From positions 770 through 64,769 of the forward strand of contig CALVIV010000002.1 in the NCBI GenBank assembly GCA_944331935.1: a DNA stretch of 64,000 nt, given 5' to 3'. The translations under genes and the position numbers were made by a program. The stretch is from an uncultured Bacilli bacterium. GTDB lineage: Bacteria > Bacillota_I > Bacilli_A > RF39 > UBA660. Shown piece by piece: positions 4,531 through 53,634 of the stretch. The notes beneath the pieces are model-generated. The model was given only the letters and a program-made list of their open reading frames with translations. It made no database searches and was not told where the DNA came from. The stretch's first letter is position 1. Each line of letters starts with the position of its first letter.

Positions 4531-4935
4531 GTGAATAATAAAGATACTTGTTGTTTAGGTAAGCTATTAAAGGTTATTGATATATTACAAAGAAATGCCG
4601 GAGGTAGTGATTGCTTTGATGAGTCTTGTACTAGACCTTATTTAGGAAGTAGTCCTAATATTATTTGTTTTAATACAAGACCAGTTACTTTCTATACTAG
4701 GAATGGTAATATCTTTAGTACTACTTATACATTAAATGGAACTACTAATACTTCATCTGTTTTTAGAGTGGAGTCAGTAGATGATTGCTGTGTTAAATGT
4801 CGTATCTTAAGACCTAATCCTGATACTACTGATATAAATAGAACATATCTTGCTACTAATGAGTTTATAACTATTAATTTAGATTGTATCTGTGTTGTTA
4901 GTTGTTTAGATGATATTATTATTGATAATTTATAA
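4531..4935 (+). CDS. Cys-rich spore coat protein, CotY/CotZ-like
   Basis: GTG start after SD AGAGGTGG. Cys pattern and FRVESVDDCCVKCRIL...ITINLDCICVVSCL resemble Bacillus CotZ/CotY. Confidence 0.6.
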   Translation: MNNKDTCCLGKLLKVIDILQRNAGGSDCFDESCTRPYLGSSPNIICFNTRPVTFYTRNGNIFSTTYTLNGTTNTSSVFRVESVDDCCVKCRILRPNPDTTDINRTYLATNEFITINLDCICVVSCLDDIIIDNL

Positions 4936-4949
4936 AAGGAGGATAATTT

Positions 4950-5348
4950 ATGTGTGATGATAAAAGTTGCTTAACATCCATATTAGAGACTATTCTTTGC
5001 TTACAAAATGCTAAAGATGACGACTGTGAAGTCCTAGGATGTGATAAGCCTTATTTAGGTCCTACTCCTAGTTTAGTGTGCTATAACACAAGACCAATAA
5101 ACTTATATAATTGTACAACTGGGGAACTATGGTCTTTTCCTTATACTCTTGGAACAGTTAATGGTACTTCTTCTATCTTTAGACTTGAAAACCTAGAAGG
5201 TAATTGTTGTACTTGTAGAGTTTTAGCACAGAATCCTGATACTAGTAGTAGTGAACCTTATGTTTTAACTAGTACATTCTTTACTATTAATCTAGATTGC
5301 GTCTCTGCTATTAGATGTTTACCTGATGTCTTTATAAGTGGTGTTTAA
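4950..5348 (+). CDS. Cys-rich spore coat protein, CotY/CotZ-like (paralogue)
   Basis: SD AAGGAGG. Colinear with the previous ORF (PYLG..C.NTRP..FR.E....CC.CR.L..NPDT...TINLDC...CL). Confidence 0.6.
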   Translation: MCDDKSCLTSILETILCLQNAKDDDCEVLGCDKPYLGPTPSLVCYNTRPINLYNCTTGELWSFPYTLGTVNGTSSIFRLENLEGNCCTCRVLAQNPDTSSSEPYVLTSTFFTINLDCVSAIRCLPDVFISGV

Positions 5349-15957: not shown

Positions 15958-15976
15958 TGGTGGCTCCAGCGGGAAT
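15958..15976. repeat. attL core (orphan copy of the tRNA-Phe 3' end)
   Basis: TGGTGGCTCCAGCGGGAAT is identical to 52709-52727. Of the next 3 nt, 2 also match. Confidence 0.85.
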
Positions 15977-16357: not shown

Positions 16358-16387
16358 TTGACACTGGGTACCTAGTTGTAGTATACT
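16358..16387 (+). promoter_or_regulatory. sigmaA-type promoter of the plus-strand cargo operon
   Basis: TTGACA (16358-16363), 18-nt spacer, TATACT (16382-16387). Confidence 0.55.
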
Positions 16388-16393
16388 ATTATC

Positions 16394-16510
16394 ATGAAAG
16401 GAGGAAAGAAAGTGAAATTTTCTATAGTACTATGGAAAATAAAAATAACCTTAAGCTTCGAAATAAATCGAAAACATAAGATTACAAAAGTTTCTAGAAG
16501 ATGGAGCTAA
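16394..16510 (+). CDS. possible small ORF (38 aa from ATG 16394, or 32 aa from GTG 16412)
   Basis: The ATG sits about 7 nt after the -10 box (leaderless option). The GTG is preceded by AAAGGAGG. Stop at 16508-16510 inside the small hairpin GGAGC-TAAG-GCTCC. Confidence 0.3.
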   Translation: MKGGKKVKFSIVLWKIKITLSFEINRKHKITKVSRRWS

Positions 16511-16591
16511 GGCTCCTCTTCACTAAATAATATAACATAGAAAATTATCACTGTCAAATTTATGAAGAATTTAGAAAGTGAGGAAAGAAAG

Positions 16592-16870
16592 ATGAAAAGA
16601 GAATTTTATGTAGTAGAAAGAGAAGAATCTTTTAATGGGGGTAATGAATATAACAATTATGAAGATGCTTTATATGATTTAAGAAAAACTTTAGAAGATG
16701 AAAGTAGTTATATGTATAATGTTAATAAAAATCATATATATACTCTATCTAAAGTAACTATTGAAGATGAAGATAATTATAACTGGGATACTTTAAAGAG
16801 TATTAGTGTTAAAGATTTTAGAAATTTAGATTATGAAGAAAAAGAAAAGTTCTTTAAAAGTGAGGTGTAA
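16592..16870 (+). CDS. acidic hypothetical protein (92 aa)
   Basis: Start moved to the ATG at 16592, preceded by GAGGAAAG. No family recognised. Confidence 0.55.
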   Translation: MKREFYVVEREESFNGGNEYNNYEDALYDLRKTLEDESSYMYNVNKNHIYTLSKVTIEDEDNYNWDTLKSISVKDFRNLDYEEKEKFFKSEV

Positions 16871-16872
16871 AT

Positions 16873-17325
16873 ATGGCATTTAATAAAAGAGAATATGATA
16901 ATAATTATGAGAAAGAACACTATAGTCAATTTAAGGTGAAATTAAAAATTGAAGAAAAAGAAAATTTAGATAATCTTTTAGAAAAAGAAAATATAACAAA
17001 AACAGACTTTTTGAAACAAAGTATTTATGAATTTAAGAAAGGAAGAAATATTATGATGAATAAATTTGATATAATTAACTTTTTAAAAAGAAACGAAGTA
17101 ACAGAAAAAGGAAATTTTAGAGAAGACTTCTCTGCAGGTCACTACTCTACTCAGGACACTTTATTAGAAAAATGGTATGAGTTAGAAGACGGTAGCTTCA
17201 ATACTACAGTATTAGATGACCACACTTATGCTTACATATCCGTATTTGATGACAAAGATGAACAAATTGCTGATGGATATATTGCTTATAAAGATTATGA
17301 AGAATTAATTAGTAATTATAAATAA
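16873..17325 (+). CDS. ribbon-helix-helix (Arc/CopG-like) N-domain protein with unknown C-domain
   Basis: KREYDNNYEKEHYSQFKVKLKIEEKENLDNLLEKENITKTDFLKQSIYEF fits the beta-alpha-alpha RHH pattern. Only 2 nt separate it from the previous stop. Confidence 0.55.
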   Translation: MAFNKREYDNNYEKEHYSQFKVKLKIEEKENLDNLLEKENITKTDFLKQSIYEFKKGRNIMMNKFDIINFLKRNEVTEKGNFREDFSAGHYSTQDTLLEKWYELEDGSFNTTVLDDHTYAYISVFDDKDEQIADGYIAYKDYEELISNYK

Positions 17326-17362
17326 AAAAGACCTAGAGGTTATTATTCCTCTAGGCTTTATT
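17325..17362. terminator. bidirectional terminator between convergent cargo operons
   Basis: A-run, CCTAGAGG-ttattatt-CCTCTAGG, then a T-rich tail. Confidence 0.65.
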
Positions 17363-17386: not shown

Positions 17387-17833
17387 TTATTTTCCATGTT
17401 TATATAAAGTGCCTTTCCAGTCAATATAAAATATATAAAATATTGTATTTTTAATCATTCCAATTATTCTAGGATTAGCAGTTCCTGGTGGAGAGCCAGC
17501 AGGATATAATCTAAAAATTGCATATTTTTCGTTAGTTTCAGCTGGGTGAATATCTCTAAACTCTCGAGGTATACCTCCTTTTAAATTTAATTTTTTTATA
17601 GGTATCTCCTCTATAAAATTCTTTTTGTCACCTTGATATTCTATAATCATTACTGCATACATTTTAGACGACAAAAATTGTAACCTTTCTAATAATTTAA
17701 TAGCATCTTTAGATGATGGATTTCCATTTTCTTTGGCAAACGTAAAATTAAATTTTAAAAATTTTTGTGGATTACAATAATTACATATTTTTACTTTTGG
17801 TGTTAATGATGGAATACTCTTTTTGCTAGACAC
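17387..17833 (-). CDS. unclassified partner of the Panacea-domain protein (candidate toxin)
   Basis: 148 aa. GTG start overlaps the upstream stop by 8 nt. The C-terminus FRLYPAG...RIIGMIKNTIFYIFYIDWKGTLYKH gives a RelE/ParE-like impression only. Confidence 0.55.
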   Translation of the reverse strand: MSSKKSIPSLTPKVKICNYCNPQKFLKFNFTFAKENGNPSSKDAIKLLERLQFLSSKMYAVMIIEYQGDKKNFIEEIPIKKLNLKGGIPREFRDIHPAETNEKYAIFRLYPAGSPPGTANPRIIGMIKNTIFYIFYIDWKGTLYKHGK

Positions 17834-18347
17834 TATTTACTACTTGATTCTGAAAGTACTCTCTAATAAGCGATACTGGAATTTCTTTATCCATTCCTTT
17901 AGTTCTAACTGTAGTCTCCCACGGACCTCCTGGAGTGTGTGTCATTTCTCTTAATTGCCATGCAGTATATATACCAAAAGTATCATATACTGAATTTAGT
18001 ACAGTAGAAGATTCAATATCAAGTTCTATTTCTTCTATTTTTTTCATATCCTCAGGGGTTAATTCTATATTTATTTCATCTCTTCCCCATTTCTTAAAAT
18101 CATTATACACTTTTTTTACTACTGGTCCATGTGTCCATGCATTAATTTTGTCATTAAAAAGTACTTTATTATTTACTACTAAATTTACACCTTGAGCAAA
18201 ATATAATAATTTCTGTAATTTAAGATGCGTTAATCCTTCATACACTTCGTATTTATCATCATATTCCGTTTCATTTTCCAATTGATTAACTTTGTTTTTC
18301 CATAAAAACCACTTTGCAACATCTAGTGCATCATACCTTTTCTTCAT
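17826..18347 (-). CDS. Panacea/DUF4065 (SocA/GepA/PanA-like) domain protein, candidate antitoxin
   Basis: LTHLKLQKLLYFAQGVNLVV...INAWTHGPVVKKVYNDFKKWG is the DUF4065 hallmark. Start placed at the ATG at 18347 (GAAGGTGG upstream), because a promoter and operator lie inside the longer ORF-track form. Confidence 0.75.
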   Translation of the reverse strand: MKKRYDALDVAKWFLWKNKVNQLENETEYDDKYEVYEGLTHLKLQKLLYFAQGVNLVVNNKVLFNDKINAWTHGPVVKKVYNDFKKWGRDEINIELTPEDMKKIEEIELDIESSTVLNSVYDTFGIYTAWQLREMTHTPGGPWETTVRTKGMDKEIPVSLIREYFQNQVVNSV

Positions 18348-18372
18348 TCTAACCACCTTCATAATCCCTATC

Positions 18373-18438
18373 CTATTCTTACTTATAGAATAGCATAGTT
18401 CGTGCAAATATTCTAGTATCTTTTTAGCCATATGTCAA
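18373..18438 (-). promoter_or_regulatory. promoter plus palindromic operator of the Panacea operon
   Basis: Minus strand carries TTGACA (18438-18433), 17 nt, TAGAAT (18415-18410). Downstream lies the palindrome CTATTCT-N7-AGAATAG (18373-18393). Confidence 0.55.
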
Positions 18439-18499: not shown

Positions 18500-18531
18500 A
18501 AAAAACAGGTAGAGCCAATTAAGACTCTACC
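18500..18531 (-). terminator. terminator of the lysis cassette
   Basis: Minus strand GGTAGAG-N10-CTCTACC followed by a T-run, 6 nt after the endolysin stop. Confidence 0.65.
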
Positions 18532-18536
18532 TATTA

Positions 18537-19427
18537 TTAATTATTAGATACTTCATATAAAGGTCCACAATCACATCTAAACTGAACTCCATCAGCTTCG
18601 AGAATTGCTACACCATTTTTTAAATAGTTAGTTGGTAGCTCAACACCTTTTACAGTAAAGATATTATCACACTTCCAGTAATTGCCAACATTTAAAATTG
18701 CATTATAATCTGCATTGCTTCCATCAGAATTACATTTAGCAAGTGGTCCACTTGGAATATAATCATTTACTCCACATGGAGAGCCATAACAAGTATCATA
18801 GCATCCAATGGCACCATTTGGGTATTTGCTGTTTGGAAGTATTATTTCATTTACTTTAAATACACCATTAAATTTTACTTTTGAACCTACTTTTAATATT
18901 TGGTCTGCTGTAGAACTAGAACCTCCACCATTTAATTTCTCTTGAACTTTAGCAACAAACGTATTCCAGTCGTATGGATTGCCACGTCTTATATCATAAG
19001 GACAGTCTTTACCCGTCCAATGATTATGTTGAAATAAGTAACTACTAGCATTTGTAACACCATATCTTTTTAATATTTCTGCAGATAGTTCTACTGCATT
19101 ATCAGTAGCTTTTCTAATATCTCCATCAGAGTTATCACATATTTCAATAGAGATAGTCTTCATGTTTCCATCGCCTCTACCATCTCCTTGACACCAAGCT
19201 ACCTCGTTTTCTGGAACACATCTAACTGCTCTATCTTGGTCTACTACATAATTCCATGATGTAGTTACATTCTTCCAAGAACCTCTTAAAAGATTTGCAT
19301 GGGCTATCGCATTAGCACCTTTATTGTTATTTGATGTGTTATGAATAGTTATACCTTTAAATCCAGTTCTAGATATACCTGGTCTACAACTATAGCCAAG
19401 TGGAGCTAACATTTCGATAATTTCCAT
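18537..19427 (-). CDS. endolysin: N-acetylmuramoyl-L-alanine amidase (amidase_2/PGRP type) with Cys-rich C-terminal binding domain
   Basis: ITIHNT..NA.AHANLL...SWNYVVDQD..V.CVPENEVAWCQGDG...ISIEICDN. Positioned after the holin. Confidence 0.85.
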   Translation of the reverse strand: MEIIEMLAPLGYSCRPGISRTGFKGITIHNTSNNNKGANAIAHANLLRGSWKNVTTSWNYVVDQDRAVRCVPENEVAWCQGDGRGDGNMKTISIEICDNSDGDIRKATDNAVELSAEILKRYGVTNASSYLFQHNHWTGKDCPYDIRRGNPYDWNTFVAKVQEKLNGGGSSSTADQILKVGSKVKFNGVFKVNEIILPNSKYPNGAIGCYDTCYGSPCGVNDYIPSGPLAKCNSDGSNADYNAILNVGNYWKCDNIFTVKGVELPTNYLKNGVAILEADGVQFRCDCGPLYEVSNN

Positions 19428-20425: not shown

Positions 20426-20836
20426 TTAATCTGTCGTTTTATGATAATAAATTGTACATTTTCCTTTAGTTGTTCTATCAGCCCAAGCTACTTCTCCTAA
20501 TCCTTCAATGACTAAATTTGTTGAATCAACTGAGAGTTTGCACATAATAGAGGAGCTATCTATTCTTACCCCGCTAAACCATTTGGCGTCAGTAGTATCG
20601 TACCAACTGTAAAAATAGCATATTATGTCATCTAAATCTGATATATTATGATTTACTGTTCTTTGGCCATTGCTCGGAAATGCACCAAATTCAACAACTT
20701 TTTTATAATATGGTCTGTCAAGATAAAAACCAACAAGTTGCTCTTCCTCTGAATAATTTTTAAGATTTTCGTATCGTGGAATTTTAGGATTTAAAATATT
20801 TCCTAATTTATCTTTTAAAACATTATTTACTGCCAT
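20426..20836 (-). CDS. tail-tip / receptor-binding candidate, paralogue 3
   Basis: N-terminus VLKDKLGNILNPKIPRYE is shared with two upstream ORFs; the C-domain is divergent. No SD upstream. Confidence 0.55.
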   Translation of the reverse strand: MAVNNVLKDKLGNILNPKIPRYENLKNYSEEEQLVGFYLDRPYYKKVVEFGAFPSNGQRTVNHNISDLDDIICYFYSWYDTTDAKWFSGVRIDSSSIMCKLSVDSTNLVIEGLGEVAWADRTTKGKCTIYYHKTTD

Positions 20837-20859
20837 ATAAACGGCTATTTAATTCTCTC

Positions 20860-21252
20860 TCATAAATTTATGCCATAAACTTCAGTAATTGCAGGATTAC
20901 CCCAACCACTAACGTTTCTATCAAGTATTTTTATTTGTGTTTTGCTAGGAAATACAAAATTAATAGCAAAGTGTCCTGCTGTTGTATAATTAGATAACAT
21001 ATAAGAGTGATTATTATTTGTTTTGTTATATACTATATCACTAACTTTAATAAGTATCGAAGTTTTAAAATAGCTTGAATCAGCACCGCCAATAACATAT
21101 AGATAATCATACTTTTCAATGTCATCATTCAATGTATATGTTTGAGATAATGTTAGTGAAGATGTATTTAATTTTGTAGACCCTCTTTTCTCATATCTCG
21201 GAATTTTAGGATTTAGTATTTTATCATCTTTATCTTTTAATACTTCATTCAC
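20860..21252 (-). CDS. tail-tip / receptor-binding candidate, paralogue 2
   Basis: GTG start. N-terminus VLKDKDDKILNPKIPRYE; the C-domain is unrelated. No SD upstream. Confidence 0.5.
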   Translation of the reverse strand: MNEVLKDKDDKILNPKIPRYEKRGSTKLNTSSLTLSQTYTLNDDIEKYDYLYVIGGADSSYFKTSILIKVSDIVYNKTNNNHSYMLSNYTTAGHFAINFVFPSKTQIKILDRNVSGWGNPAITEVYGINL

Positions 21253-21274
21253 ATATTTTGCTTTTTTAGCTTAA

Positions 21275-21679
21275 CTATGAGTTATAGGTAAAATAGACAT
21301 AAAAATATCCAGTCCATGAAGAAGCATTATAATTTGTAGAAACGAATAGTCCTTCACTATTAATATAAAATCTTATAATACCACTATTTGAATTGTCTGG
21401 AATATTTGTAACTTGGTTATTCAAGTCTTTTCTGTAACCTGCTATTTGTCTAGTTATTGATATACTATTAAAATCTAAATCGCAATCTACTTTTTTCGCA
21501 CTATTATTTGGCAAGTTACCACAACTAATAAATACAACATATTCATCTTTGCCATTTACTTTCTGCCCAGTTTTTACTGGGTTTCCATTTGTTACTAAAT
21601 TGCATTTTAATAATTCATACCTAGGTATTTTAGGATTTAAAATGTTTTCATCTTTATCTTTAAGTACACTATTACTCAT
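21275..21679 (-). CDS. tail-tip / receptor-binding candidate, paralogue 1
   Basis: N-terminus VLKDKDENILNPKIPRYE. Good SD GAGGTGG. Confidence 0.6.
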   Translation of the reverse strand: MSNSVLKDKDENILNPKIPRYELLKCNLVTNGNPVKTGQKVNGKDEYVVFISCGNLPNNSAKKVDCDLDFNSISITRQIAGYRKDLNNQVTNIPDNSNSGIIRFYINSEGLFVSTNYNASSWTGYFYVYFTYNS

Positions 21680-50181: not shown

Positions 50182-50823
50182 ATGAGTTATTTTAATAGTA
50201 ATCTTCCCTTCATAAGAAAGAAAAAAGGGATTTCTCAAACCGAGTTAGCTGAAAAAATAGGTGTAGATCAATCAACTATTTCTCTTTGGGAAAAAGGAAT
50301 GGATACTACAGTAGATAATGCAATTAAGGTTGCCGAAGTACTAAATGTATCTATACCAGAATTTTTAGGTAAAGATTTAAGATTTGACAATGCCAATATA
50401 ATAGACGTGAATTCTGACATAGTCAAAATACCTGTATATGGCACTATTAAAGCTGGAATACCTATAGAAAGCCAAACTGATATTATTGATTATGTAGATA
50501 TACCTAAAAGTTGGACTAAAGGTGATAAAAAGTTTTATGGTCTTAAAATTAGTGGAGATTCTATGTTTCCTAAGTATCAAGATAAAGATATAGTTATTTT
50601 TGAAAAAACTGATGATACTACATTATATAATGGCAAAGATTGTGCCGTTATGATAAATGGAACTGAATCAACATTTAAAAAAGTTTTAATTAACGACCAA
50701 GGAATTGTATTACAAGCCTATAATATGGCTTATGGAATTAAAATGTTTTCTAAAGAAGACGTTATAAATAAGCCTATTAAAATTGTAGGTATTGCTCGTG
50801 AAAAGAGGACTAAAATTGATTAG
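50182..50823 (+). CDS. cI/LexA-like repressor (HTH + S24 peptidase)
   Basis: GISQTELAEKIGVDQSTISLWEKG plus GDSMFP and a C-terminal beta domain. Confidence 0.85.
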   Translation: MSYFNSNLPFIRKKKGISQTELAEKIGVDQSTISLWEKGMDTTVDNAIKVAEVLNVSIPEFLGKDLRFDNANIIDVNSDIVKIPVYGTIKAGIPIESQTDIIDYVDIPKSWTKGDKKFYGLKISGDSMFPKYQDKDIVIFEKTDDTTLYNGKDCAVMINGTESTFKKVLINDQGIVLQAYNMAYGIKMFSKEDVINKPIKIVGIAREKRTKID

Positions 50824-51500: not shown

Positions 51501-52652
51501 ATGCCAGTTTATAGAGAAAAAAATAAAAAGAAATGGACTAAAGATGGAAGATCATATTACTTTAGATGCTACTATACAGATATGTATGGTAATAGAAAAC
51601 AAAAAGAAAGTAAATTATATAAATTAAGTAGTGAAGCGAAAGAAGCTGAAAGAGAATTTTTAAATAATGTTGAAAAGAAAGATATAACAGATACTAATAT
51701 ATCATTTGAGTCAGTTTTTTATGAGTGGCTATCTATAAAAGAAAGAGCCGTTAAATGTACTACTTATTATCGTTTAAAACAAAATTTAACAAAACATATA
51801 TTAAATTTTTTCAGTAAATATAAATTACACTCAATAAAAATGGATACAATTAATAGTTGGTACTCATATTTAGAAAATGCTAATATCGGTGAAAAGTATC
51901 AGAACTCATTAATTGGCTATTTAAAAGAAGTTTTGACATATGCTAAGGACAATTATGACTTTGATATAAAAATCGTTTCTAGAATACAAAAAAAGCGTAT
52001 TTCAAAGGATGTTACAAAAGTTAATGATGCTCTATGGAATTTTTGGACAGATAAAGAATTTGATATATTCATAAAGTGTGTTGATGACCCTTTCTATTAC
52101 ATAATTTTTAATTTTCTTTATTATACAGGTCTTAGAATGGGAGAGCTAATTGCTTTAACTTGGAATAACGTAAATTTAGAAAGAAAAGAAATATATATAA
52201 AAGACAATTTTACAAACAAAGTAGAAGGACAGGTGTTTGCAATAGTGGATCCTAAATCCGATAATTCAATTCGTATTGTTGATTTAGACGATGACACTGT
52301 TGCAATGTTATCTAAACATTATGAACACGAAAAAAAATTATATAATTTTTCAAATGAGTGGTTTGTTTTTGGTAATGTTAAATATGTAGCACCTACCACA
52401 TTTGCAAACCATCTTGATAAATATATTGAACAGGCAAAAAAAGAACATACTAATTTTAAACGAATAACACCTCATGGTTTTAGACATTCGCATGCATCGC
52501 TATTAATTAATTTAGGATGTGATAGTCGTGAAGTTGCTGCGAGATTAGGAGATACTGTTGAAGTTATAGAAAGTACATATTATCATATGTTTCCTGATAA
52601 GAAAAAACATACCATAGATGTATTAAATAACTTTAAAAAAAGAGGTAAATGA
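51501..52652 (+). CDS. int: tyrosine integrase
   Basis: 383 aa. Contains LRMGELIAL...HGFRHSHASLL...Y. The stop lies 56 nt from the att core. Confidence 0.9.
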   Translation: MPVYREKNKKKWTKDGRSYYFRCYYTDMYGNRKQKESKLYKLSSEAKEAEREFLNNVEKKDITDTNISFESVFYEWLSIKERAVKCTTYYRLKQNLTKHILNFFSKYKLHSIKMDTINSWYSYLENANIGEKYQNSLIGYLKEVLTYAKDNYDFDIKIVSRIQKKRISKDVTKVNDALWNFWTDKEFDIFIKCVDDPFYYIIFNFLYYTGLRMGELIALTWNNVNLERKEIYIKDNFTNKVEGQVFAIVDPKSDNSIRIVDLDDDTVAMLSKHYEHEKKLYNFSNEWFVFGNVKYVAPTTFANHLDKYIEQAKKEHTNFKRITPHGFRHSHASLLINLGCDSREVAARLGDTVEVIESTYYHMFPDKKKHTIDVLNNFKKRGK

Positions 52653-52708: not shown

Positions 52709-52727
52709 CTGGTGGCTCCAGCGGGAA
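52709..52727. repeat. attR core (3' end of the intact tRNA-Phe)
   Basis: Identical to 15958-15976. Confidence 0.85.
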
Positions 52728-52784
52728 TCGAACCAGCGACACAAGGATTTTCAGTCCTTTGCTCTACCGACTGAGCTATGAAGC
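52709..52784 (-). tRNA. tRNA-Phe (GAA)
   Basis: Reverse complement GGCTTCATAGCTCAGTCGGTAGAGC...CTGAAAA...GGTTCGATTCC...CCA. Confidence 0.95.
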
Positions 52785-52796
52785 CAAAAATAAAAA

Positions 52797-52873
52797 ATGG
52801 CGGTTCCGACGGGGCTCGAACCCGCGATCTTCTGCGTGACAGGCAGACGTGTTAACCAGCTGCACCACGGAAC
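52797..52873 (-). tRNA. tRNA-Asp (GUC)
   Basis: Acceptor GGTTCCG/CGGAACC, anticodon loop CTGTCAC, encoded CCA. Confidence 0.95.
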
Positions 52874-52874
52874 C

Positions 52875-52950
<76 letters not shown>

Positions 52951-52965
52951 GATATAAAATTCTAA

Positions 52966-53058
52966 ATGGCGGAGGAAAAGGGATTCGAACCCCTGCGCCG
53001 CTTGCGCGACCTCCCGGTTTTCAAGACCGGTCCCTTCAACCAGACTTGGGTATTCCTC
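52966..53058 (-). tRNA. tRNA-Ser (UGA)
   Basis: Long variable arm, anticodon loop CTTGAAA, encoded CCA. Confidence 0.95.
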
Positions 53059-53066
53059 CAAAATAG

Positions 53067-53155
53067 ATGGTGCCTAAGGTCGGACTTGAACCGACACGAG
53101 GGGTGAACCTCCCAGGATTTTAAGTCCTGTGCGTCTACCAATTTCGCCACTCAGG
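53067..53155 (-). tRNA. tRNA-Leu (UAA)
   Basis: Begins GCCTGAGTGGCGAAATTGG. Long variable arm, anticodon loop CTTAAAA. Confidence 0.9.
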
Positions 53156-53164
53156 CACATATAA

Positions 53165-53240
53165 ATGGTGACCCGCATGAGATTCGAACTCATGACCCTT
53201 TGATTAAAAGTCAAATGCTCTACCGACTGAGCTAGCGGAT
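53165..53240 (-). tRNA. tRNA-Lys (UUU)
   Basis: Anticodon loop CTTTTAA, TPsiC GTTCGAATC, encoded CCA. Confidence 0.95.
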
Positions 53241-53255
53241 CATACTACTAATTAG

Positions 53256-53330
53256 ATGGTTGCCTCGGTTAGATTCGAACTAACGCATGTCAGAGTCAAA
53301 GTCTGATGCCTTACCACTTGGCTACGAGGC
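53256..53330 (-). tRNA. tRNA-Gln (UUG)
   Basis: U1-A72 start TGCCTCG, anticodon loop CTTTGAC. Confidence 0.9.
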
Positions 53331-53351
53331 AATAACAAATGAGTATAAACT

Positions 53352-53435
53352 ATGGTGGAGAGAGATGGATTCGAACCATCGAACCCGAAGGAACAGATTT
53401 ACAGTCTGTCGCGTTTAGCCACTTCGCTATCTCTC
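53352..53435 (-). tRNA. tRNA-Tyr (GUA)
   Basis: Variable arm present, anticodon loop CTGTAAA. Confidence 0.95.
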
Positions 53436-53447
53436 CGACATAATAAA

Positions 53448-53523
53448 ATGGTGCCGAAAACAGGAATCGAACCCGTAACCTACTGATTACAAATCAGTTG
53501 CTCTACCAATTGAGCTATTTCGG
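53448..53523 (-). tRNA. tRNA-Thr (UGU)
   Basis: Acceptor GCCGAAA/TTTCGGC, anticodon loop TTTGTAA. Confidence 0.95.
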
Positions 53524-53536
53524 CAACATATAATAA

Positions 53537-53613
53537 ATGGTGGGCGATATAGGACTCGAACCTATGACCCCTTGCTTGTAAGGCAAGTGCTCTAACCAAC
53601 TGAGCTAATCGCC
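53537..53613 (-). tRNA. tRNA-Val (UAC)
   Basis: Acceptor GGGCGAT/ATCGCCC, anticodon loop CTTACAA. Confidence 0.95.
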
Positions 53614-53634
53614 CAAAAACCGTTTGACATGATT

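Follow-up and report, generated by a model that had tools for sequence, protein, structure and literature searches.

A PanAT pair of cluster T1 in a tRNA-Phe-integrated prophage of an uncultured Bacilli bacterium

What kind of protein is encoded beside a standalone Panacea gene when that protein resembles nothing that carries a name? The question is raised by a two-gene operon in a stretch of 64,000 nucleotides (nt) from an uncultured Bacilli bacterium (GenBank assembly GCA_944331935.1, contig CALVIV010000002.1, positions 770 to 64,769), here called the window. The operon lies entirely on the minus strand of the window and consists of panA, whose product (PanA) has a Panacea (DUF4065) domain, followed by a gene for a protein of 148 amino acids (aa). 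A sequence-only reading had described it as a toxin-antitoxin or defence module with an unrecognised toxin. Every sequence feature listed in that reading, namely the Panacea gene, the overlap, the GTG-started open reading frame (ORF), the promoter hexamers, the palindrome and the terminators, was located on re-analysis. The evidence gives good support to the conclusion that the operon is a real, conserved module, and that it is another PanAT pair of type T1 without an unrecognised toxin family.

The pair and partner cluster T1

The upstream product is a Panacea protein, as proposed. It matches Pfam's hidden Markov model (HMM) for SocA_Panacea (PF13274) at 79.6 bits (cut-off 25.7, E 4.5e-22). 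The NCBIfam SocA equivalog model (NF047745) gave 89.8 bits, below its cut-off of 190, so PanA is not a SocA equivalog. The stop of panA and the GTG start of the 148-aa gene overlap by 8 nt (17826-17833), again as first read, and the overlap links the two genes translationally. Relatives of the 148-aa protein number 49 at 90% clustering, and a search among 1.84 billion proteins gave 113 representatives at 50% clustering; all are of about 130-165 aa and none of them is named. Its sole significant library match is phrog_38762 (E 8.5e-8), which has no assigned function.

The family is nevertheless on record. A profile of it matches orf161 of Salmonella phage vB_SemP_Emek (YP_006560566.1) at 70 bits (E 1e-23) and the partner protein of Clostridium cuniculi (WP_133014904.1) at E 4e-6. 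Dataset S1 of Kurata et al. 2022 (PNAS, PMC8832971) lists both under partner (PanT) cluster T1, the Emek pair YP_006560565/6 with a gap of -62 and the pair of C. cuniculi strain 1 (PanA WP_133014905.1, PanT WP_133014904.1) in the order A|T with a gap of -8. In the phage record the overlap of orf149 and orf161 measures 62 nt; on the C. cuniculi contig (locus L093) a PanA of 156 aa is followed by an ORF of 150 aa, with an overlap of 8 nt. Because the profile matches these two listed members, the 148-aa protein is assigned by homology to the published partner family T1. The same matches contradict the proposal of an unrecognised toxin or new PanT family. The remark that the protein fits no family is true of Pfam, NCBIfam, PADLOC and PDB sequences, but not of the literature, where it is T1 (PMC8832971). 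T1 comprises 217 rows labelled pT1 in that data set, level with the MqsR cluster T2 as the largest, and PanA-T1 pairs make up about one sixth of the predicted Panacea toxin-antitoxin loci (217 of 1,268 rows). RefSeq still labels T1 proteins 'hypothetical protein', and no Pfam model matched T1 when 84 + 8 family members were scanned. No paper on T1 later than Kurata et al. 2022 was found, nor were T1 accessions found in the supplements of NetFlax (PMC10440598).

The two genes travel together. Starting from the partner, 24 species-representative genomes and one annotated phage were sampled, giving 23 testable loci with room upstream. The immediate upstream gene is Panacea in all 23, judged by an ORF that passes the Panacea HMM, and all 24 upstream neighbours, including that of the window itself, match this model. 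On three divergent branches the Panacea gene is also directly upstream of the partner, with the pair placed after the phage lysin. Starting from PanA, a partner relative is immediately downstream in 65 of the 80 closest loci, and in 43 of the 44 testable loci of the gut Bacilli/Clostridia group (the only exception is locus L072). Pairwise identities of PanA and of the partner across 58 loci are correlated (r = 0.88, Mantel p ~0.001). The 8-nt overlap also places the operon within the FlaGs limits of Kurata et al., at most 100 nt between the genes of a conserved two-gene locus. Outside this subfamily, the partner family adjoins PanA in Proteobacteria, Actinobacteria, Bacteroidota, Melainabacteria and other phyla. 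PanA and its partner are inherited as a unit across many phyla, and the conserved co-occurrence anticipated by the sequence-only reading is borne out by both samples and by the co-divergence.

No different antitoxin was found beside a partner relative within this subfamily. One candidate swap, in Latilactobacillus phage TMW 1.706 P2 (locus L013, 3494-3955), was ruled out, since the neighbour WCZ54921.1 passes the Panacea HMM. This Panacea protein with a T1 partner is annotated 'Cro/CI family transcriptional regulator' in the public record, which looks like a mis-annotation. Two loci look decayed: L022 retains a truncated T1 fragment (4896-5192) with no PanA ORF upstream, and L072 has a PanA gene but, downstream of 3498, no T1 relative. 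Beside more distant PanA relatives, other genes replace T1 in the downstream slot. These encode proteins of 123-173 aa with coiled coils and transmembrane segments (L095, L096, L100, L102, L112) and, in L109 (2390-2674), a RelE/ParE-like protein of 94 aa. The presence of membrane-type and RelE-like genes in this slot fits the idea of a toxin slot, and the variation is the toxin-partner swapping described for Panacea. The pair of phage Emek (L118, 14764-15637) lies between the injection-protein genes and mnt, the region where P22 carries the superinfection-exclusion gene sieA. Pairs of the Emek type at 95-100% identity occur in 48 of 5,426 complete E. coli genomes.

The leader region and the start of panA

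A sigma-70-like promoter and a palindrome had been described upstream of panA, in the layout of an autorepressed operon. The promoter hexamers, TTGACA-17-TAGAAT, are present as described. Their score of 11 of 12 consensus positions ties for the highest with two further sites in the 2.8 kb scanned, a region with 30 promoter-like sites against 19 +/- 4.4 in shuffles. The position of the hexamers is conserved in most related Bacilli-type loci.

The palindrome CTATTCT-N7-AGAATAG was also found between the promoter and the Shine-Dalgarno (SD) sequence, and it is the perfect core of a larger inverted repeat with 12-nt arms. The 7-nt arms alone are unremarkable, being reached in 19 of 200 shuffles. 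Related loci carry the repeat equally far from the start codon, as CTATTCTA-N4-TAGAATAG in L015, L027 and L009 and as CTATCATA-N4-TATGATAG in L016. Across 12 loci, 80% of cells pair in the proper register, compared with 31-50% in slid registers, and in three pairs both sides have changed. Covariation scores 0.242 here and 0.135 in shuffles, none of 500 of which reaches the observed value. RNAalifold gave no consensus structure for the leader. This compensatory conservation indicates that the inverted repeat is likely functional, as an operator or as a leader hairpin. The autorepressed layout is hypothetical because a scan of the HMM library found no recognised DNA-binding domain in PanA, a result that leaves autorepression through the repeat unsupported.

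The start codon of panA bears on the same region. An ATG at 18431, with the SD sequence AGGAGG at 18447-18442, would give a PanA of 201 aa; an ATG at 18347, with the SD sequence AAGGTGG at 18359-18353, would give one of 173 aa. Since the first of these ATGs, with its AGGAGG, falls between the promoter hexamers, PanA is either 201 or 173 aa long, and two isoforms of these lengths are possible. The N-terminal extension comprises 28 codons in frame (18348-18431, minus strand) and includes a conserved peptide, M-x-KK-[IV]-LEY...CY-x-I, whose coding sequence shares bases with the putative promoter and with the palindrome's left arm.

It is quite possible, if somewhat short of probable, that most of this supposed promoter and operator is coding sequence. 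PanA would then start at 18431, transcription would come from further upstream or by read-through, and the hexamers and left palindrome arm would be conserved because they encode M-x-K-K-I-L-E-Y...C-Y-x-I. Several observations point this way. Upstream of the short start the reading frame stays open for 21 codons or more in 14 of 14 loci and for 27 or more in 13, most of the 14 have at the equivalent place a start codon that follows AGGAGG, and gene callers chose the long form in related loci (199 and 194 aa). Synonymous differences occur within the conserved peptide (TTA/TTG, TCA/TCG, TGC/TGT, CTA/CTG, AAA/AAG), and L014 keeps the peptide although it lacks both hexamers. However, differences over the block have no third-position bias (458/343/430), in contrast to the body of PanA (142/120/315), and L016 has perfect hexamers yet no start codon for the extension. 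A G-rich, SD-like element before the short start is conserved in all loci, and Clostridia-type loci carry the short form only, behind a TTGACA promoter. The compensatory changes in the inverted repeat likewise count against the coding reading.

Predicted activity of the partner and rival readings

The locus is probably a prophage-borne PanA-PanT module of the T1 type, with the 148-aa protein as a ribonuclease (RNase)-like toxin held by PanA. As effector, the 148-aa protein would be a small alpha/beta enzyme whose N-terminal tail is lysine-rich and disordered, with the predicted fold order beta-alpha-alpha-beta-(alpha)-beta-beta-beta. The near-invariant E75, R108/R122 and Y144/H146 would form an acid-base site, with which the protein would cleave RNA and so arrest translation. 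PanA would bind its partner directly through the Panacea fold and keep it inactive; standalone PanAs can neutralise a toxin directly, by 'conformational neutralisation', according to NetFlax (PMC10440598). The module would be expressed in the lysogen, with the conserved leader repeat acting in its control, and would serve the prophage through abortive infection or superinfection exclusion, or through addiction.

The predicted structure and the conserved residues suggest an enzyme. The AlphaFold2 model, built from 48 sequences, has a predicted local distance difference test (pLDDT) score of 85.8 and a predicted template-modelling (pTM) score of 0.77. Residues 1-24 are disordered and lysine-rich; strands 27-29 and 34-36 and helices 41-54 and 59-65 follow, and the C-terminal part is made of strand 75-78, helix 90-95 and strands 103-108, 122-128 and 131-138. 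Conserved across 143 diverse members are F28, S55, K70, E75, R108, R122, G125, F132/Y133, D138, Y144 and H146, with E75 at 99%, R108 at 98%, R122 at 93%, Y144 at 92% and H146 at 77%. YoeB, barnase and RNase Sa show the order Glu...Arg...His/Tyr on a small alpha/beta scaffold. The same order in T1 makes a translation-blocking RNase its most likely activity, though this particular assignment is a tentative one.

A CxxC motif (residues 17-20) lies in the disordered basic tail. It is at least 90% conserved in the close subfamily and absent from the wider T1 family, and its two cysteines would not suffice for a full zinc site unless H146 or acidic residues contribute. A non-significant match to the SsdA deaminase (E 0.18) was rejected, as the protein lacks an HxE...CxxC arrangement and the wider family does not conserve the CxxC.

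A vague likeness of the C-terminus to RelE/ParE strands had been sensed in the sequence, but neither sequence nor structure comparison confirmed it. Among the weak Foldseek matches of the model, the only toxin-like structures are RelE and HigB, namely an archaeal RelE and two HigB (1wmi_A, 4mcx_B, 4px8), with E 3-9 and target-normalised TM-scores of 0.40-0.46. In the hhalign register, F-R-L...R-I-I-G...F-Y-I of the partner aligns with W-S-I...R-I-T-F...A-Y-I of HigB and W-S-R-R...R-L-V-Y of YoeB, which is the region where the likeness had been sensed. None of the RelE-clan families scanned (ParE_toxin, HigB-like, YoeB, YafQ, BrnT, MqsR and others) gave an HMM match at E up to 1, and none of the 84 + 8 family members matches any of them.

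Several results weigh against an RNase-like toxin held by PanA. Foldseek of the model against PDB and BFVD gave no match with E <0.6. The hhalign probability was 0.1-0.2% against Proteus vulgaris HigB (query sequence verified against 4mct_B), E. coli RelE and YoeB, and at most 0.2% against a 113-sequence HigB profile, which is shallow (effective number of sequences, Neff, 2.5) and so a weak test. The 148-aa protein and two family profiles found no match in Pfam, NCBIfam, PADLOC or PDB sequences; neither PanA nor the partner matches any model of PADLOC-DB v2 at E up to 1. We know of no defence phenotype for PanA-T1.

Toxicity on expression alone, expected of a toxin, has been partly tried on T1 relatives in E. 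coli, with a divided outcome (PMC8832971). Of three T1 members assayed there, the one from Clostridium cadaveris (the WP_074844973/0 pair) was toxic and was not neutralised by its PanA, while the other two, from the E. coli MOD1 prophage and from phage Emek, showed no toxicity. No T1 pair has so far been validated as a toxin-antitoxin pair. The SI Table S1 of that study labels its three tested T1 members 'mRNase', but no basis for the label and no HHpred annotation for T1 were found in the supplement.

These assays bear most directly on a second account of the conserved PanA-T1 module, in which T1 is not a constitutively active toxin. It would instead be an effector that needs a phage-derived trigger, or a nucleic-acid-binding accessory or co-regulator that acts through its lysine-rich tail, for example on the inverted repeat. 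PanA would be a sensor, the role that the NetFlax authors favour for Panacea (PMC10440598), and not a simple neutraliser. This account is rather unlikely, though it would accommodate the two non-toxic T1 members and the third that PanA did not rescue. The basic, disordered tail, the restriction of the CxxC to the close subfamily and the lack of a toxin fold detectable by Foldseek or hhalign are consistent with it. A conserved inverted repeat also calls for something to bind it, and PanA lacks a known DNA-binding domain. However, the C. cadaveris protein is toxic, E75, R108, R122, Y144 and H146 look catalytic rather than merely structural, and known toxin types sit in the same slot beside related PanAs. 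Heterologous toxins are moreover commonly harmless in E. coli, as were 8 of the 25 PanTs tested (PMC8832971).

A bolder proposal, and a more doubtful one, is that T1 represents a new effector fold with a Glu-Arg-Arg-Tyr-His site, not a RelE variant, and that PanA-T1 is a trigger-dependent anti-phage system controlled by the leader repeat. If it did depend on a trigger, T1 members would look non-toxic or impossible to neutralise in simple E. coli assays. That the 148-aa protein founds a new PanT family is very improbable: the database searches without a match and the RefSeq name would allow it, but the profile matches two listed T1 members, and the same family flanks PanA in several phyla.

Prophage setting and comparison with known systems

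The module is an insulated cassette after the lysis genes of a prophage of about 36.8 kb integrated at tRNA-Phe (Table 1). Terminators flank it on both sides, as the sequence-only reading had stated, and the one that closes the lysis cassette isolates it from late transcription. The pair has the same post-lysin position in other prophages, which was counted in favour of a prophage cassette. A cargo slot at the prophage end, behind the endolysin terminator, had been proposed. The slot is there, some 1.4 kb inward of the integrase-distal att site, but two further plus-strand ORFs (16562-17325) stand between the module and that site.

Table 1. Features of the prophage and of the panA operon in the window.
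Feature	Position	Strand	Remarks
att core, exact 19-bp direct repeat TGGTGGCTCCAGCGGGAAT	15958-15976		integrase-distal copy
att core, second copy TGGTGGCTCCAGCGGGAAT	52710-52728		3' end of tRNA-Phe
tRNA-Phe	52710-52785		prophage integration target
Tyrosine integrase	51501-52652		at the prophage end away from the module
CI-like repressor	50182-50823		near the integrase end
Amidase endolysin	18537-19427		Amidase_2 Pfam match; precedes the module
Intrinsic terminator closing the lysis cassette	18504-18535	-	13-pair stem, then T run
Sigma-70-like hexamers TTGACA-17-TAGAAT	18438-18433, 18415-18410	-	11 of 12 consensus positions; overlaps ATG 18431 and the first codons
Inverted repeat CTATGCTATTCT N7 AGAATAGGATAG	18368-18398		12-nt arms, 92% complementary; candidate operator or 5'-leader hairpin
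panA, standalone Panacea/DUF4065 gene	17826-18431	-	PF13274 match
panT-like gene, 148 aa, GTG start	17387-17833	-	assigned to PanT cluster T1
Bidirectional intrinsic terminator	17331-17356	both	between the partner gene and the convergent ORF 16873-17325

The two plus-strand ORFs belong to a second small cassette (16358-17325), which separates the PanAT module from the att site. Its promoter-like site, TTGACA-18-TATACT (16358-16387), is followed by two ORFs 2 nt apart, one of 102 aa (orf102, 16562-16870) and one of 150 aa (orf150, 16873-17325). Neither has a Pfam match. Residues 13-56 of orf150 weakly match phrog_876 'transcriptional repressor' and have a ribbon-helix-helix-like appearance, and a relative of orf102 with 44% identity stands beside the PanAT pair in L005-L008. 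The two were rejected as a third component of the module, as orf150 has no relative in any fetched locus and orf102 only in those four loci. Upstream of the holin and lysin genes, adjoining the tail genes, are three tandem paralogous ORFs of 136, 130 and 134 aa (20426-21679, minus strand) that have in common the N-terminal VLKDK..ILNPKIPRYE and then diverge. Related prophages carry Gp10_C-domain genes at this place, and the paralogues may be interchangeable receptor-binding or tail-fibre tip modules. The integration target is the first gene of a ten-tRNA array (52710-53614, minus strand; Phe, Asp, Met, Ser, Leu, Lys, Gln, Tyr, Thr, Val); it holds the prophage in its 3' end, which the 19-bp att repeat restores.

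The system after which Pfam SocA_Panacea is named is unlike this one on the partner side. In the type VI pair SocA-SocB of Caulobacter crescentus, the toxin SocB binds DnaN and has SocA as its ClpXP adaptor. The same Panacea domain is found there on the antitoxin side, although the PanA described here scores below the SocA equivalog cut-off. SocB, to which the 148-aa protein is unrelated, forms cluster T10 in PMC8832971.

RelE, YoeB and HigB are ribosome-dependent mRNA endonucleases of the RelE/ParE superfamily. Like the model of the partner, they are small alpha/beta proteins in which an N-terminal strand and two helices precede a C-terminal antiparallel sheet, and a conserved Glu, an Arg and a C-terminal Tyr/His are common to both. 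RelE-like toxins also pair with other PanAs. However, the partner exceeds them in length by about 50 residues, has an additional strand and helix and a basic tail of about 24 residues, and shows no significant HMM, profile-profile or Foldseek match to them.

The closest comparison is with T1 pairs themselves. In phage Emek, C. cuniculi and C. cadaveris, as here, a standalone Panacea gene comes first and a partner of about 140-160 aa second, with a small overlap, which is -8 both here and in C. cuniculi. The partners are homologous and the pairs are often prophage-carried. The subfamily described here differs from the T1 of Kurata et al. in that it comes from gut Bacilli/Clostridia prophages, mostly in metagenome-assembled genomes that postdate or are absent from their data set. 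It also has the CxxC in its N-terminal tail, unlike the wider family, and a conserved leader inverted repeat that is not described in PMC8832971. T1, despite its abundance, is without an assigned fold, proven activity or validated neutralisation. The general picture of Panacea systems is unchanged by this locus, whose value is as a tractable example for settling the function of T1. It adds to the known T1 pairs a well-populated gut-prophage subfamily, a confident model without a significant structural neighbour, the candidate catalytic residues E75, R108, R122, Y144 and H146, and a conserved leader repeat as a possible control element. PanA-T1 pairs are carried on prophages from Salmonella P22-like phages to those of gut Bacilli.

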